A stretch of 64,000 nt of DNA from Arcobacteraceae bacterium (GTDB taxonomy: Bacteria; Campylobacterota; Campylobacteria; Campylobacterales; Arcobacteraceae). The stretch lies in contig JALNYH010000002.1 of assembly GCA_023229945.1 (NCBI GenBank), positions 21,548 to 85,547 on the forward strand, written 5' to 3'. Position 1 is the first letter of the stretch. Each line of letters opens with the position of its first letter. A program made the translations under genes and the position numbers. The notes under the pieces are model-generated. The model did no database searches. It saw nothing but the letters and a program-made list of their open reading frames with translations, and was not told the origin of the DNA. Positions 15,135 through 19,333 of the stretch are shown here, one piece after another.

Positions 15135-15188
15135 CTTCAAAATTTATTTGAGATAGATATTTATATGACCACACTGCTAGTATAAAAA

Positions 15189-15944
15189 TTAAAATAAACT
15201 AGCTTGTTGTGGTTTTTTTTCTTCTTTAATATGCTTTTCAATCCAAGTTATAAATTCATTTTTAAACTTAATACCTTTGATTTTTCCATGGTATTTATCA
15301 ATAATAAATAAATCTTTATATTTATTAGTTGGTGTATAAGTTTTATCTTCTTTTTGTATCACGGCTTCATGGATTAAATATTTATTCAAATCTTGTGTTT
15401 TTTGAAATAAATCTTCTGCTTCATCTTTTAAATATTGCACTACCTCAGAAGCTGTATAGCCATTATTTTCTCTATAGATGAACTCTATTTCATCTTTTTT
15501 TATCTTACTTTGTTCCATAAATAAATTTTTATTAGATAAATAAACTTTTATTTTTTTATTGTTGTCTACCCCTCGAAGTATATTGTCATAACTTCCTTTA
15601 CTCATGCCATCCCATATAACAAAAGTAAACTCACTATCTATTGTCATAGCTTTATCTTTTTCTTGTTGTCGTTCTCGTTCTTTTTTAATGCTATTTGAAA
15701 CTTCAATATACTTTGTCTTAAAACTTTCATTTGCTTTATATCTAGGACACATAGAAATGGAATAAACCGTTATCTTACAATAATTTAATGATGCACAATA
15801 ATCTTGTACTAATGTATCAACTCCAGAAGCATCACCAATTATTATTTCAAAATTTTGTTCAATTATTTTATTAATACTTGTTTTAACCTCTTGAGGAAGT
15901 TCTTTAATTGATATAGAACCACTTATAAAAACTTTATTTTTCAT
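15189..15944 (-). CDS. SLOG/DUF2493/DprA-like Rossmannoid domain protein with an unknown C-terminal domain
   Basis: 251 aa. KVFISGSISI...EIIIGDASGVDTLVQDY...FVIWDGMSKGSYDNI pattern. ATGA overlap with the upstream PRTase gene. Family call is by eye only. Confidence 0.45.
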   Translation of the reverse strand: MKNKVFISGSISIKELPQEVKTSINKIIEQNFEIIIGDASGVDTLVQDYCASLNYCKITVYSISMCPRYKANESFKTKYIEVSNSIKKERERQQEKDKAMTIDSEFTFVIWDGMSKGSYDNILRGVDNNKKIKVYLSNKNLFMEQSKIKKDEIEFIYRENNGYTASEVVQYLKDEAEDLFQKTQDLNKYLIHEAVIQKEDKTYTPTNKYKDLFIIDKYHGKIKGIKFKNEFITWIEKHIKEEKKPQQASLF

Positions 15945-16663
15945 CTTTTAACATCCTTGAGTGGAATGAAAAAGAAATTTACTTTTTTATTGAAATCATA
16001 TAACTTATACATGCTTTCACATATTGAAGCAGTTGTACCCATTACATCATCAATAAGTACAAAAGTATCACTAATATTTGATTGACTTAAATCTATAGAA
16101 TATTTATTAAACTGTTGTGTTGATAAATTTATCATGCTTTTGCTTGATACTTGAGTATTTTTAGAAATAATTGTTTTTAGCGGGATGCTATTTATCGCTG
16201 ATAATTTGGTTGCAATTTCATCAGGTATTTGAGAACTTGAAGGTATAAAAACAATCTTTAAATCAGTATAATTTTCTTTTAGATACTTAATATATCCATT
16301 AAAATGAGAAATTATTTCATCAACATAAGTTTCTCTTATTTCTTGTTTTATTGGGTCTCTCTTTAAATACTTCATCTCATACAATTTTTTTCCAAAATAT
16401 GTGTATTTTTGATATTCTTGACCCTTATATTCAAATGTTAAAATATGAGTAAAAAGATTTTGATTAAAATCTTGAAGGATCTCAAACTCTTTGTAAAAGT
16501 CTAGAATAACACCCTGTGCAATTAGAGTTTTTTGAAAAAATATTTTACATTGTAAATGATTATTTTGTAAAGAAGTATCTTGTATATATTCAATGATTTC
16601 ATTATTAATATTTACGGGTACTTTTTTAGCTTTAATTACAATTTTAAAATCATTTACAACCAT
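15941..16663 (-). CDS. ComF-like type I phosphoribosyltransferase-domain protein with a novel N-domain
   Basis: C-terminal PRPP loop FVLIDDVMGTTASI and IVFIPSS strand. No ComF Cys4 finger. Start placed at MVVNDFKIV (ATG 16663). The track start 16738 lies inside the conserved leader repeat. Confidence 0.6.
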   Translation of the reverse strand: MVVNDFKIVIKAKKVPVNINNEIIEYIQDTSLQNNHLQCKIFFQKTLIAQGVILDFYKEFEILQDFNQNLFTHILTFEYKGQEYQKYTYFGKKLYEMKYLKRDPIKQEIRETYVDEIISHFNGYIKYLKENYTDLKIVFIPSSSQIPDEIATKLSAINSIPLKTIISKNTQVSSKSMINLSTQQFNKYSIDLSQSNISDTFVLIDDVMGTTASICESMYKLYDFNKKVNFFFIPLKDVKR

Positions 16664-16745
16664 CCTAACCCTTTTAAACTTTATACTATATTTGATATAA
16701 ACTTTTAACTTAAATACAAATAATACAACATAGTTCATCGATAGA

Positions 16746-16890
16746 CTAACTATTTATTCAACCTACATTATACACAAAATACCCTAAAAATAAATAAATG
16801 CCATACATACAAAATATTAGATAATCCAACAATTATAAATACATTAAATAAAGCAATTATAAAACTTTTTACTAAGAAATATTGCAAAAG
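16746..16890. repeat. copy A of a ~140-nt promoter/leader repeat (partner at 17882..18018)
   Basis: Direct repeat, roughly three-quarters identical by eye. Identical blocks aactatttattcaacc, acattata, actaagaaa and attgcaaaag. Minus-strand TGTGTATAAT -10 lies inside. Confidence 0.7.
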
Positions 16891-17123
16891 CCTATTTAAT
16901 GGTACCTGTACTTTTTTTAACCCTTATCTTTAAAAAAGACATTCATATAGAGCAACGCACCTATTTTAGTTATATAATAGGGTGTATTTGGTATCATAAT
17001 TCTTCTTATTCTTACCATTTTTATCTCTAATATTTAGATATTAAAAATGTTACAAAAATAAAATCCATTTATTTAAGCATATTATAATCTGGAATTAATT
17101 AGTATACTGTCTTTAGATTTAGA

Positions 17124-17285
17124 TTAAATTTCATAGCAAGATATAATTTCATCAACATTATATCCAGATGCAAGTAACACACTTTTTACATCTTTTTTAG
17201 ATAGTGCCTTAATTGTTTGCACTTTTACAGGTATTTCTCCTTGTAAAGTAAAACTAACTCTATATGTTCTCATAATATTTGACAT
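17124..17285 (-). CDS. possible 53-aa protein downstream of the P-loop gene
   Basis: Hand-translated MSNIMRTYRVSFTLQGEIPVKVQTIKALSKKDVKSVLLASGYNVDEIISCYEI. AAAGGAAAAG RBS. No family recognised. Confidence 0.35.
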   Translation of the reverse strand: MSNIMRTYRVSFTLQGEIPVKVQTIKALSKKDVKSVLLASGYNVDEIISCYEI

Positions 17286-17387
17286 TAAACTTTTCCTTTA
17301 TATTATAAATATTTAATCACTAACGATTAAAATAAGTCAATCAATTATCCATGAAGAAATTGATTGACTCCACTTATTTGTTATCTT

Positions 17388-17864
17388 TTAGACTAAGTCA
17401 TATATCTTTTGTTTAACTACCTGAGCTTTTTTCTTTGGGTCTTTTTCACTAATAGTTATAATTTGTAAATTTTTTAGACTCGAATAATAATTTTGAAGTT
17501 CACTTATATTTAATTGTGCATGTAAACACCACTTATTCTCTAATGCAATTAAATATACATCTGAATCTTTGTATAAATCTTTAAGAATTTTTATTGAATC
17601 ATTGGAAGGTTCTTTTGTTGGACAAAAAGCACTGATAATATAATCTGGTTTTGAACTGAGTTGATTTAATCTACTATTTATCTCATTAATATATCCTGCT
17701 TCTCCCCAATCATCATTTGATTGCGACTGAACACAAAACTTCTTATTACATAGTTCATAAAACTTATTTTTATAAAATCTTTCTCTACCATTAAATAGTT
17801 CTTTGATAATAAAACTTTTACCCCAATTTTGGAAACCTGTGATTAAAAAAACTTTTTGTTTCAT
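17388..17864 (-). CDS. small P-loop NTPase-like protein
   Basis: Start moved to MKQKVFLITG (ATG 17864, AAGGA RBS). Walker A-like GFQNWGKS. 158 aa, otherwise unassigned. Confidence 0.45.
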   Translation of the reverse strand: MKQKVFLITGFQNWGKSFIIKELFNGRERFYKNKFYELCNKKFCVQSQSNDDWGEAGYINEINSRLNQLSSKPDYIISAFCPTKEPSNDSIKILKDLYKDSDVYLIALENKWCLHAQLNISELQNYYSSLKNLQIITISEKDPKKKAQVVKQKIYDLV

Positions 17865-17881
17865 ATATATCCTTTTATAAG

Positions 17882-18018
17882 CCAACTATTTATTCAACCC
17901 ACATTATATAAAACACAACCTTCGAATAAACAAATAACATACATTAAAAATATCATATAACAAAACAACTATAAATAAAACAATTAGAAAACTTTTAACT
18001 AAGAAAACATTGCAAAAG
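17882..18018. repeat. copy B of the promoter/leader repeat (partner at 16746..16890)
   Basis: Immediately upstream (minus strand) of the P-loop gene. Contains a TATATAAT -10-like element at the position matching copy A. Confidence 0.7.
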
Positions 18019-18149
18019 TTCTGTAAATCTTACTTACCCGTAACTTCAAATACGATAAAACTTAGTAAAAACTCAACATATCTTTTAGTAAACTTTCTTT
18101 TTTTTGTTATAATTTACACTAAATTTAATATATTTGAGGAATATCGCCA

Positions 18150-18461
18150 ATGGGAACAAAACTTGTATTAGAGAGATTGAAAACTATAAAATCAAAGTAT
18201 CAACAAGATGGTTTCAATATCATAGCACTTTTTGGCTCTTATGCTACAAATTCTCAAAATGACACGAGTGATATAGATTTGCTATATGATGTTGATAAGT
18301 CATTTTTAGACAAATACAAAGGTTTTCGTTCTGTATCAAAAGTTATGGAAATACAAAATGAATTATCTAGCTTACTCCATACAAAAGTGGATTTAACATC
18401 TCCATCAGGTCTAAATCAAAAAATAAAAGATGATATAACTTCAAAGGCTATATATTTCTAA
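18150..18461 (+). CDS. MNT-type nucleotidyltransferase (MntA antitoxin family of HepT/MNT type VII TA modules)
   Basis: 103 aa. LFGSYATNSQNDTSDIDLLYDV = GSx10-11(D/E)xD pol-beta NTase motif. Confidence 0.8.
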   Translation: MGTKLVLERLKTIKSKYQQDGFNIIALFGSYATNSQNDTSDIDLLYDVDKSFLDKYKGFRSVSKVMEIQNELSSLLHTKVDLTSPSGLNQKIKDDITSKAIYF

Positions 18462-18578
18462 AGATATAAAAACATTCATAGCCATGATTATGATGGTGTA
18501 AATCAAACAGCTATCAGATACGGTTTACCTGAACTGTTGCGTATATATAATAGTATACTTGATAAGCAAGTCAGATAG
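18462..18578 (+). pseudogene. C-terminal remnant of a HepT (DUF86) toxin gene
   Basis: No start codon. The frame after the MNT stop reads RYKNIHSHDYDGVNQTAIRYGLPELLRIYNSILDKQVR*, i.e. a HepT Rx4HxY-like motif (K-NIHS-H-D-Y) plus the C-terminal helix. About 75 N-terminal residues are missing. Confidence 0.5.
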
Positions 18579-18769
18579 AGGAAATGAGAAAAGCAAAGCC
18601 TAATAGAATTTAAAAAAGTTCCATTTTGTAAACTTAGCACCTTCCTTTATTCGTGCCATTTATATATCTTATATTTTGATATAAAATAATACAAAAATAA
18701 AACATATCTTATTGAAAATATTACAATTTATGATTATTTGTTATCTATTAGATATCCTGCTCCCCAGAA

Positions 18770-19333
18770 TTATCTAACCTTCCGTCTTTCTTTCCACTTA
18801 TAATCCGTATCTTTTGTGACATAACTAAAAAACATCGTTCCAGAATTTCTCCATGCGTCAAGTAAGATTCCTTCATCAAATGGTCTTCCTTTGGCGGTGA
18901 TGCTTATGGCGTGATGTTCGTGGAAGTAGCTTCCTTGATTGGCTACTACTTCGTAGATACCGAGGGTGGGGTATTCTTCTGTTTTGAGATATGATACTAT
19001 ATCACTTACCCAATGATGACACAATCCTCTTTCTCTTTGATTTTGATTTACCAAAAAGTTTTGAAATGATGGTGGGGCTACTAAATTATAACTATTGGCT
19101 AGATACATTGCATAGTAGATACTTTTATTTGCTACATCTCGTGCTTCTTGTTTTGTGATTTGAGGGGAAAGATTTTGAATCATTTGGGAAAGTAGCTCAA
19201 TATTTTGTACTGTTTTGGGGTCGGTTTTGGTCACTTCGATAGTGTTATTGGAATTAAGTGCTACGCTATCATATTTGACACTACATCCTGTGAATATAAA
19301 AAAAGATAGTAAAGATAAGATAATGGTTTTCAT
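18770..19333 (-). CDS. hypothetical lipoprotein
   Basis: 187 aa. Lipobox LSFFIFTGC. No family recognised. Confidence 0.6.
   Translation of the reverse strand: MKTIILSLLSFFIFTGCSVKYDSVALNSNNTIEVTKTDPKTVQNIELLSQMIQNLSPQITKQEARDVANKSIYYAMYLANSYNLVAPPSFQNFLVNQNQRERGLCHHWVSDIVSYLKTEEYPTLGIYEVVANQGSYFHEHHAISITAKGRPFDEGILLDAWRNSGTMFFSYVTKDTDYKWKERRKVR

Follow-up and report, generated by a model that had tools for sequence, protein, structure and literature searches.

Gene organization of the locus

The window analysed here is a 64,000-nucleotide (nt) stretch of DNA from an Arcobacteraceae bacterium (GenBank assembly GCA_023229945.1, contig JALNYH010000002.1, positions 21,548 to 85,547). Its minus strand carries two overlapping open reading frames (ORFs), 15941..16738 and 15189..15944, whose genes are referred to below as A and B and are interpreted as a candidate two-gene toxin–antidote module. 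Gene A encodes a PRTase-CE-type phosphoribosyltransferase (PRTase) that is predicted to be a toxic effector, and gene B encodes a SLOG-fold protein that is predicted to be its antidote or regulator. An initial annotation, made from the sequence alone, had described a minus-strand two-gene operon with an ATGA stop/start overlap at 15941..15944. The sequence confirms this: the end of A (...GTT AAA AGA TGA) and the start of B (ATG AAA AAT) lie in overlapping frames and couple the two genes.

The same annotation extended A to 16738. Nearly all homologues of A are approximately 240 aa long and begin with MVVNDF, and the corresponding ATG at 16663 is directly preceded by an AAGGG..AGG ribosome-binding site, AAAAGGGTTAGG; no such site lies upstream of the ATG at 16738. 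Gene A is therefore corrected to 15941..16663 (240 aa), while B occupies 15189..15944 (251 aa), both on the minus strand. Searches of a collection of 5.8 billion proteins returned 107 homologues of A (top E-value: 1e-149) and 323 of B (top E-value: 1e-158). Identical proteins are found in an Arcobacteraceae metagenome-assembled genome (MAG), where they are annotated as hypothetical proteins (M0P43_01675 for A and M0P43_01670 for B). Both window genes are full length and retain all of the invariant residues of their families and, judged from these alignments, A and B are genuine conserved genes.

The cassette formed by the two genes has a GC content of 0.242 and lies in an island (15135-18769) with a GC content of 0.246, compared to 0.337 and 0.319 in the flanks. 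One flank encodes a cytochrome c (norC-like) and a COX1-type NorB, NirS, a second cd1 protein and a peptidyl-prolyl isomerase, and the other a lipoprotein, a NirDL-type siroheme decarboxylase, sirohaem synthesis genes, a NirF-like protein and a NirJ-like radical-SAM protein. The AT-rich insertion described by the initial annotation is thus evident both from base composition and from the nor and nir genes on either side: the pair accounts for a foreign insertion within the nir/nor denitrification cluster of an Arcobacteraceae genome.

Protein A, a putative conflict-effector PRTase

The AlphaFold2 model of A (built from a 45-sequence alignment; mean pLDDT 92.4) has two domains joined by a helical linker. 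Residues 1-85 (16409..16663) form a conserved all-beta domain of eight strands (E6 to E85 by DSSP) with the motif GVILDFYKEFE and the invariant residues P16, L37, I48, G51, Y57 and F60. A profile of this domain found nothing among PDB sequences. The initial annotation had recognized an unrelated N-terminal domain here, and such a domain is indeed present, although as a module of approximately 85 residues rather than the 130 estimated.

Residues 89-240 (15944..16399) constitute the PRTase core. This region includes an IVFIPSSS strand and pyrophosphate (PPi) loop (16232-16255), the flexible-loop residues K168/S174/K175 and a phosphoribosyl pyrophosphate (PRPP) loop, FVLIDDVMGTTAS (16025-16063), with the acidic pair D205-D206. 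Invariant columns of the core are S142 (in the IPSS loop), K168, S174, K175, Y188, D205, D206, G209, D237 and R240, and the C-terminal KDVKR is likewise invariant. In Foldseek searches of the PDB, A is most similar to Helicobacter pylori ComF (7p0h; E-value: 9e-6), followed by PurR, PurF, APRT, HGPRT and XPRT (E-values to 1e-3). The A-family profile matched PDB sequences weakly and over the PRPP loop alone (ComF, APRT, PurR). Based on the model, A has a type I PRTase fold, in agreement with the ComF-like PRTase proposed initially. As A contains only two cysteines (positions 39 and 215), it has no Cys4 finger, which was also stated in that annotation.

Searched alone, the window protein matches the PADLOC model PRTase_III-A (E-values: 2e-4 to 7e-4) and scores 20.1-20.5 bits against Pfam PF24390 (PRTase-CE), below the 27-bit gathering cut-off; it has no ShosT match at E<=1. 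Stronger matches were obtained when 45 members of the A family were scanned one by one. PRTase-CE is detected in 42 of these (best E-value: 2.3e-9), and many homologues carry a precomputed PF24390 label. The PADLOC models PRTase_III-A, ShosT and PsyrT match 41, 20 and 13 of the 45, respectively (best E-values: 4e-9, 8e-10 and 1e-8). Alignment with hhalign brings the loops of A into register with the PRTase domains of two proteins, a genuine PsyrT (from locus L027, described below) and a plasmid-encoded "ComF family protein". Because of these matches and this register, A can be assigned at the sequence level to the clade of defence-associated, ComFC-like "conflict-effector" PRTases. This clade has been noted as monophyletic (10.1101/2025.09.30.679545), and defence-associated PRTases share features with ComFC (PMC5512222).

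Protein B, a predicted SLOG-domain protein

Protein B was modelled with AlphaFold2 (mean pLDDT 91.6), with secondary structure assigned by DSSP. Its 323-member family has a mean column identity of 68%. Residues 1-145 (15510..15944) form a Rossmannoid domain of the SLOG type (DprA/YAcAr-like) with the motifs VFISGS, GDAxGxD, R68, KDxxM (K96-D97-x2-M) and WDGxSxGS..N, which are nearly invariant in 69 diverse relatives down to approximately 25% identity. The closest PDB match in Foldseek is H. pylori DprA (HpDprA, 4ljl; E-value: 3.6e-4), with the SLOG domain of ThsA and the N-terminal domain of TRPM2/8 also among the best. ShosA of E. coli APEC O1 (8zva) is matched with an E-value of 7.7e-4 (TM-score 0.40 over 152 columns), and weaker matches include DNPH1 and nucleoside deoxyribosyltransferase (NDT) folds. 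Among the viral structures of BFVD, YAcAr/DUF2493 and DprA-like proteins are most similar (E-values: 6e-7 to 1e-5). By fold, residues 1-145 are a SLOG superfamily domain, the SLOG/DUF2493/DprA-type Rossmannoid of the initial annotation. The motifs quoted there are all present, namely KVFISGSISI, EIIIGDASGVDTLVQDY and FVIWDGMSKGSYDNI in B, and FVLIDDVMGTTASI and IVFIPSS in A.

No Pfam, NCBIfam, PADLOC or PDB-sequence profile reaches significance with window B. Its scores against TIGR00732 (dprA; E-value: 0.11, 11.7 bits against a cut-off of 191) and PF02481 (DNA_processg_A; E-value: 0.13) fall short, and YpsA (PF06908) and YAcAr (PF10686) do not match it. The 69 relatives give weak matches, to DNA_processg_A in 12, YAcAr in nine, YpsA in three and PADLOC ShosA in seven (best E-value: 2e-3).

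ComFC and DprA both handle incoming single-stranded DNA (ssDNA) in natural transformation, and it could be supposed that A and B are these housekeeping competence proteins or else enzymes of purine or pyrimidine salvage. The best solved-structure matches of the two proteins are consistent with the former, as are the ComFC-like N-terminal helix motif (..G..L..LKY) and the RefSeq label "ComF family protein" given to plasmid relatives. However, neither protein is an orthologue by curated models: B falls far below the dprA cut-off, and no ComF or salvage equivalog is matched. The absent zinc finger in A, the patchy cross-phylum distribution with a new neighbourhood each time, the 24% GC island and the relatives on integrons and plasmids are equally unlike ComFC and DprA. 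Competence or salvage orthology, against which the initial annotation had set its reading, was rejected on these NCBIfam and Pfam models, and this explanation is effectively refuted.

Residues 146-251 of B (15192..15509) form a conserved C-terminal alpha/beta domain of three helices, a beta-hairpin, two more strands and a long helix. By its secondary structure this domain looks winged-helix-like and is putatively DNA-binding. Its invariant residues are R158, G162, Y163, E167, K198, Y203, P205, G220, G224, F227, F231 and W234; a profile of the domain retrieved nothing significant from PDB sequences. In relatives, the C-terminal position is shortened or is replaced by classical antitoxin helix-turn-helix (HTH) modules or a Panacea domain.

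The wider superfamily of B was sampled with a profile search of 1.84 billion representatives (of clusters at 50% identity), which recovered 1,699 clusters at E<=1e-3, including 76 at E<=1e-30. Among these are proteins in which the B-type SLOG domain is fused to other modules. P0349 (404 aa) is a single-chain PRTase-SLOG fusion with Pfam PF00156 and a B match, and aligns with the A profile (hhalign E-value: 2e-4). P0274 (450 aa) joins DUF488 to B, P0307 (293 aa) joins the SLOG domain to a SocA_Panacea antitoxin domain, and other fusions carry HTH_37/XRE modules. A protein of 2134 aa (P0291) combines RNase H with a YAcAr-like SLOG domain.

A scan of viral contigs recovered no relatives of B. Among GenBank phages, nine Prevotella Lak megaphages (MK250020-MK250028; about 366 kb) match its SLOG domain weakly in unannotated regions (30% identity over residues 6-143; E-value: 4e-5). 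As the viral contig scan was empty and the phage matches are weak and confined to the SLOG domain, these searches provide no evidence that the pair is phage-borne.

Co-conservation, partner exchange and decay

The relatives of the pair were collected from both sides (loci are designated by the prefix L). A search from A gave 44 metagenome loci; wherever A is intact and the downstream DNA is readable, B follows with a -4 bp overlap, and in a single locus (L088) this B has an internal stop. A search from B in GTDB contigs, with one genome per species, gave 52 loci from Campylobacterota, Bacteroidota, Chloroflexota, Gammaproteobacteria, Clostridia, Calditrichia, Aquificota, Desulfobacterota and an Archaeoglobaceae MAG. 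In all of these but L027, full-length B has an intact or decayed PRTase gene upstream. A and B are thus one unit, co-conserved almost without exception; co-occurrence in other genomes was one of the checks proposed with the initial annotation.

The PRTase partner is of two kinds. The first, or A-type, is 240 aa long and is marked by the loop DDVMGT[GST]A. The second is approximately 190 aa long, has the loop DDLYRSG, lacks the beta domain and is less than 30% identical to A. With either partner, B is 54-66% identical to window B. In about half of the loci examined, the approximately 190-aa PRTases are followed by SLOG-only relatives of 140-190 aa. The exchange of the PRTase against a constant B argues against tight pairwise co-evolution, as expected of a protein-protein interface, and fits an antidote that acts indirectly.

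Decay of the two genes is asymmetric. The PRTase gene is frameshifted, truncated or deleted beside an intact B in seven loci (L020, L028, L030, L031, L034, L107 and L108), while the reverse, a broken B beside an intact PRTase, is seen once (L088).

The locus without a PRTase gene or remnant upstream of B (L027:5992-9852; Sulfurovaceae MAG JADGDQ010000018.1) encodes a B homologue of 254 aa (50% identity) located 15 bp upstream of a complete PsyrT (695 aa; E-value: 2e-295) and PsyrA (329 aa; E-value: 3e-78). The three genes may act together, with B serving the PRTase domain of PsyrT; alternatively, B may be an orphan antidote that has been left in a defence island.

The conservation of B also bears on a different function for the pair. 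In a two-step pathway for a nucleotide derivative, or a signalling pair, A would make a non-canonical ribonucleotide from PRPP and the SLOG pocket of B would sense or process the product, possibly by LOG-type phosphoribohydrolase or NDT-type chemistry; the C-terminal domain would act on DNA, and either B or the product of A could be the effector. The near-invariance of the pocket motifs (GDAxGxD, WDGxSxGS, R68 and K96-D97) over 69 relatives is more typical of a ligand-binding or catalytic site, and PRTase and SLOG domains are fused into one chain in P0349. Ligand sensors (ThsA and TRPM2) and N-glycosidase-type folds (the DNPH1/NDT matches) are among the SLOG relatives, SLOG proteins have been predicted in silico to generate or sense nucleotide signals, with a YpsA-PRTase pair among those noted (PMC6459960), and type II retron effectors join an NDT-like domain to a winged helix (PMC7736814). 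On the other hand, toxin and antitoxin roles are what experiments have shown for PRTase and DprA-like pairs (PMC11961720; PMC12961424). It is the PRTase gene that decays beside a persisting B, fusions to antitoxin-type HTH and Panacea modules occur among the SLOG relatives, and B does not contain the LOG signature PGGxGTxxE as such. Such a pathway is possible, but it is not the favoured explanation.

Mobility as an integron-type gene cassette

In five loci (L002, L010, L069, L070 and L071), the A-type pair is followed by a conserved 57-nt attC element (L002:9487-9543; L010:1797-1853; L069/L070:4487-4543; L071:4489-4533) that ends in GTT, after which the flanks diverge. This element begins with AGACTAAC, the exact complement of the cassette 5' boundary, such that the cassettes read GTTAGTCT...AGACTAAC...GTT, and it folds as single-stranded DNA (z -3.2 and -3.9). 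L066 is a chromosomal integron with an IntI-like integrase (L066:664-1689) and a cassette array (L066:3919-10903), in which a pair consisting of an approximately 190-aa PRTase and B is a single cassette, GTTAGGTG...CACCTAAC...GTT. Neighbouring cassettes encode TIR, AAA_15/21 and GNAT proteins. The spacers of the array are 109-128 nt long and have the form RYYYAAC...GTTRRRY; its attC sites were identified by reading these spacers, a repeat search having given no attC family. Read in this manner, the sequences indicate that relatives of the pair are bona fide integron gene cassettes.

In the window, the cassette leader (16664..16750, minus strand) starts at the 5' boundary GTTAGTCTAT (16750..16741), which is where blastn homology to the sister cassettes begins. 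A -10-like TGnTAAAAT approximately 35 nt before the ATG is partly conserved in relatives and degenerate in the window copy. The 3' end of the cassette is at 15177..15188, as homology to the sister cassettes ends 12 nt after the B stop codon. The 5' boundary (G|TTRRRY) is kept, but no attC match was found anywhere in the window and no integrase is encoded in the 64 kb: the window copy has lost its attC and is stranded inside the nir cluster.

Genomic contexts of related pairs

The initial annotation had suggested asking whether such pairs lie in variable islands. The distribution of the pair is patchy and crosses phyla, the pair is self-contained and its neighbourhood differs each time, often being rich in defence or mobile genes. 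In Aliarcobacter butzleri, an ABC transporter flanks it on one side and urease genes on the other, and ParE, PemK, CcdAB and a type III restriction-modification system are encoded nearby; in L068 it adjoins EcoRI and ThsB-TIR genes. In 22 further loci, the immediate neighbours include DRT, mads, GajB-like helicases, PDC candidates, Cas1, a complete PsyrTA and many ordinary genes.

On conjugative plasmids of Rhizobiaceae, the pair is found beside VapC, ImmA/IrrE, patatin, SIR2 and HNH genes. RefSeq names the two proteins "ComF family protein" and either "addiction module antidote protein" or "helix-turn-helix transcriptional regulator". The B profile aligns with the Agrobacterium plasmid protein over the SLOG domain (hhalign E-value: 5.7e-45), and the C-terminus of that protein resembles a HigA-like HTH by eye. 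B-type SLOG domains were detected in 96 plasmid records (including Klebsiella, 21; Mesorhizobium, 17; Agrobacterium, 12; and also Planktothrix, Listeria and Acinetobacter), about half of which are conjugative plasmids; the two examples inspected are from Rhizobiaceae.

These locations might suggest a pure addiction module that stabilizes integron cassette arrays and plasmids and has no antiphage role. One integron cassette holds the whole pair, other toxin–antitoxin (TA) pairs lie beside it on conjugative plasmids, and several loci have housekeeping neighbours alone. In chromosomal integrons, no "defence" class is more frequent than that of TA cassettes, which stabilize the arrays (10.1101/2024.07.02.601686). 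Many of the other neighbours, however, are bona fide defence genes, and the nearest validated relatives, ShosTA and PsyrTA, protect against phages. An exclusive addiction role is unlikely; it would differ from the proposed toxin–antidote module in biological role and not in mechanism, and the two roles are not mutually exclusive.

Distant pairs (38-46% identity) lie within operons of the polysaccharide or teichoic-acid type (L008:5995-8416, L009 and L005:6001-9539). In L008 and L009, the pair is located between DUF7033 and Epimerase_2/glycosyltransferase genes. In L005, it lies between an IspD/short-chain dehydrogenase/Glyphos_transf cluster and an AAA_21 and RloB pair. Synthesis of surface glycans, for example by PRPP-dependent ribofuranosyl transfer of the CriT/Cj1432 kind with B as an accessory protein, would suit these operons and the overlap of the B stop codon with the next gene in L008, and PRPP is a ribofuranose donor in capsules (PMC10299916; PMC12096443). 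Enzymes of the CriT type differ in having a split D...E in place of the vicinal DD and a HAD phosphatase partner (PMC10299916). As A keeps the canonical DD, and as no HAD-like phosphatase gene adjoins the pair in the loci examined, a glycan role is rated very improbable. Glycan genes are absent from most loci, the window among them. Mobile elements also insert preferentially into glycan loci, and the AAA_21/RloB genes flanking L005 are of the defence type.

Comparison with known systems

ShosTA and PsyrTA each consist of a PRTase-domain toxin and a DprA-homologue antitoxin, and both are antiphage systems (10.1101/2022.05.11.491447). ShosTA, from E. coli, is classed as a type IV TA system. ShosT binds PRPP, requires its DD motif for toxicity, perturbs purine metabolism and causes DNA damage and filamentation; its acceptor is not known. 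ShosA binds ssDNA and RecA and does not bind ShosT (PMC11961720; PMC12961424). The window pair resembles ShosTA in being a two-gene module of a PRPP-binding defence-clade PRTase and a SLOG/DprA-fold partner found in defence islands and mobile contexts, with the DD motif conserved in A. The accessory regions are different. ShosT has 424 aa, an N-terminal pyrophosphatase-like Rossmann domain (PMC11961720) and long PPi and flexible loops, while A has 240 aa and an all-beta N-domain. In ShosA, a SAM domain at the N-terminus is followed by a DprA domain of nine strands and a disordered tail, while B combines a smaller YAcAr-like SLOG domain with a structured C-terminal domain; an N-terminal SAM domain is absent from B, in which the SLOG domain already begins at residue 3. 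The likeness of B to ShosA is one of fold only, there being neither detectable sequence similarity nor a PADLOC ShosA match.

PsyrTA (RqlHI) likewise pairs a PRTase domain of the same clade (13 of 45 A members match PsyrT) with a DprA-like partner, but its toxin is a RecQ-like superfamily 2 helicase-PRTase (695 aa in the genuine PsyrT of L027) and A lacks the helicase region. PsyrA (329 aa) and B share no profile similarity. Type III-A retrons provide the best PADLOC match of A and of 41 of the 45 family members, and in them the protein encoded after the PRTase has a C-terminal domain that is putatively DNA-binding (PMC7736814). In the present pair, the partner carries a SLOG domain. A retron identity was rejected: the island (15135-18770) contains no reverse transcriptase-sized ORF (none exceeds 265 aa), no Rfam match to a noncoding RNA and no tRNA, which agrees with the initial annotation's statement that no reverse transcriptase partner is present. 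No reverse transcriptase lies beside the pair in the related loci examined either.

A gene pair of a YpsA/YAcAr (DUF2493) SLOG protein and a PRTase was predicted in silico by Burroughs et al. in 2015, as cited in PMC6459960; in the passage of that source concerned, the SLOG protein is strongly coupled to the PRTase in "nucleotide-centred conflict systems". The SLOG domain of B is structurally closest to YAcAr/DUF2493, and short SLOG-only relatives follow approximately 190-aa PRTases. B scores below the Pfam YpsA and YAcAr thresholds. The compact pair probably overlaps with the one predicted in 2015.

The pair is akin to ShosTA and PsyrTA but belongs to neither, lacking the defining features of their architectures, and is most appropriately classed as a compact form of the "defence PRTase plus DprA-like SLOG" kind. 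PADLOC 2.0 does not detect it, and Pfam has no family for B. The literature search found no paper naming or testing the pair, and no description of the A-type N-domain, the B C-terminal domain, the PRTase swapping or the integron-cassette nature; a recent screen could cover the pair, and DefensePredictor lists a validated PRTase-containing system (PMC13092281). The initial annotation was right that the pair itself is unnamed, although it missed the validated relatives ShosTA and PsyrTA and the earlier SLOG-PRTase pair. With these relatives validated and that pair already noted (PMC6459960), novelty is lower than the annotation implied.

Proposed model for the pair

Taken together, the locus is interpreted, with a probability of approximately 0.6, as a self-contained, horizontally mobile two-gene toxin–antidote module of the abortive-infection type, the same kind as ShosTA and PsyrTA. 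The candidate nucleotide-centred conflict system of the initial annotation is supported by the domain calls, the co-conservation and the contexts, its function being predicted from these. In this model, A binds PRPP through its intact DD/PRPP loop as a ComFC-like conflict-effector PRTase. Unchecked, A would be toxic by analogy with ShosT, diverting PRPP or nucleotide metabolism onto an unspecified acceptor. B, which is translationally coupled to A and has a SLOG domain with a strongly conserved ligand pocket and a putative DNA-binding C-terminal domain, would keep A harmless. It would most likely act indirectly, in a type IV-like manner, by way of ssDNA, a host factor or a ligand common to both proteins, and not by binding A tightly. 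The toxin would be released on infection or when the cassette is lost. The unit moves as one integron-type gene cassette that includes a predicted promoter.

The roles of PRPP-dependent toxin and antidote are proposed because the A family is homologous to validated toxins and because of the fold of B, which matches ShosA (8zva) about as well as it matches DprA. The asymmetric decay, the exchange of PRTases, the fusions to antitoxin modules and the presence of a promoter-like leader in a two-gene cassette, as in TA cassettes, are also consistent with these roles. The strict co-conservation, the single-chain PRTase-SLOG fusion, the mobile and defence-rich contexts and the intactness of both window genes speak for the model as well.

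Several observations weigh against this interpretation. The window proteins reach neither the ShosT nor the ShosA model, and both accessory domains are unlike those of ShosT and ShosA. ShosT is absent both from the 50 best solved-structure matches of A and from its PDB sequence matches. Profiles of the B family and of the wider B superfamily show no similarity to any PDB chain, nor does the B profile resemble genuine PsyrA. PRTase-SLOG fusions and very high conservation of B are atypical for a labile proteic antitoxin; together with the invariant pocket, they are equally compatible with a two-step nucleotide pathway. The decay asymmetry comes from MAG and metagenome assemblies, in which frameshifts may be sequencing errors, and from query-biased searches. 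In addition, several loci have purely housekeeping neighbours, the distant pairs are embedded in polysaccharide- or teichoic-acid-type operons, and in L008 the B stop codon overlaps the start of a UDP-GlcNAc 2-epimerase-family gene.

A more speculative and rather doubtful possibility is that poison and antidote are both enzymatic and meet at an adduct of a nucleotide or nucleic acid, with a logic like that of DarT/DarG built from PRPP chemistry. The minimal ComFC-like PRTase would phosphoribosylate an unconventional acceptor (perhaps bases in ssDNA, or an essential metabolite) or would simply burn PRPP, and the product would be removed or sequestered by the SLOG protein, in the role of a hydrolase of the LOG/NDT type or of a scavenger. 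Acting on the product and not on the toxin protein, B could then serve interchangeable PRTases, as observed. If this were true, the small integron-borne system would be the simplest model in which to find the acceptor of all defence PRTases (ShosT, PsyrT, retron III-A and OpnC of Ophion).

Other features of the island

Upstream of the cassette is a 122-nt promoter-like element (16741..16862, minus strand) with an extended -10, TGTGTATAAT, at 16776..16767; its promoter function is predicted. The element is repeated at 17877-17998 (minus strand; 74% identity), upstream of a 165-aa gene. The last 35 or so nt of the two copies are nearly identical (TATAATGTrGGTTGAATAAATAGTTrG) and end at the cassette boundary GTT. 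The element also precedes the pair in L002, and L010 and L072 contain similar ones. A mobile promoter and an attI-like junction are both possible identities of this element. A simple sigma-70 promoter scan was uninformative (26 sites against 32 expected), and a terminator scan found none.

In L010, a GC-rich, structured-looking insert of approximately 170 nt (GAGCCCTGAACGTGCCACC...GAGCGGTGCTCAGCGCGGGC; L010:10-230) separates the promoter-like element from the boundary GTTAGTCTAT, and a similar sequence recurs after the cassette attC. This insert is probably a neighbouring attC or a short cassette.

The 165-aa protein (17388-17885, minus strand) has a P-loop-like GFQNWGKS motif and no family match. 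Its gene is followed by an imperfect 26-nt inverted repeat (17321-17383) that is attC-like, with the flanks ..GATAAC and GTTAGTG, and beyond this repeat is a 53-aa ORF (17124-17285, minus strand). Because the promoter-like element is shared by the pair and the 165-aa gene, and because of the attC-like palindrome, the island looks like a small group of fossil cassettes, of which the 165-aa and 53-aa genes are probably separate ones.

An MntA-type nucleotidyltransferase antitoxin is encoded at 18150-18461 on the plus strand (NCBIfam MntA, E-value: 4e-11; PADLOC PDC-S09, E-value: 6e-18). ORFs and family scans revealed no intact HepT partner at the locus. Directly after the MntA stop codon, approximately 38 in-frame codons (18462-18575, plus strand; RYKNIHSHDYDGVNQTAIRYGLPELLRIYNSILDK) resemble by eye the C-terminal HEPN (Rx4H) end of HepT. 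As the MntA gene is trailed only by this short HepT-like stretch, the TA-module remnant noted in the initial annotation is plausible. The 53-aa gene, the 165-aa gene and mntA accompany the pair in no other locus and, since they never travel with it, are not part of the system.

Significance

PRTase toxins are recurring immune effectors (ShosTA, PsyrTA, type III retrons and Ophion) for which the acceptor and the mode of neutralization by DprA-like partners are unresolved (PMC12961424; 10.1101/2025.09.30.679545). Genes A and B reduce the theme of a PRTase with a DprA-like partner to approximately 490 residues in two proteins, and in nature the PRTase module has been exchanged while the SLOG partner stayed constant. 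The superfamily of that partner is large, extends across bacterial phyla and to an archaeon, and is found on integron cassettes and conjugative plasmids; integron-cassette mobility is an added finding on this widespread defence theme. If validated, the pair would add an unnamed system to the defence and TA catalogues, give a role to "hypothetical proteins" that have no Pfam family, and offer a small, tractable pair for the study of PRTase-toxin chemistry.

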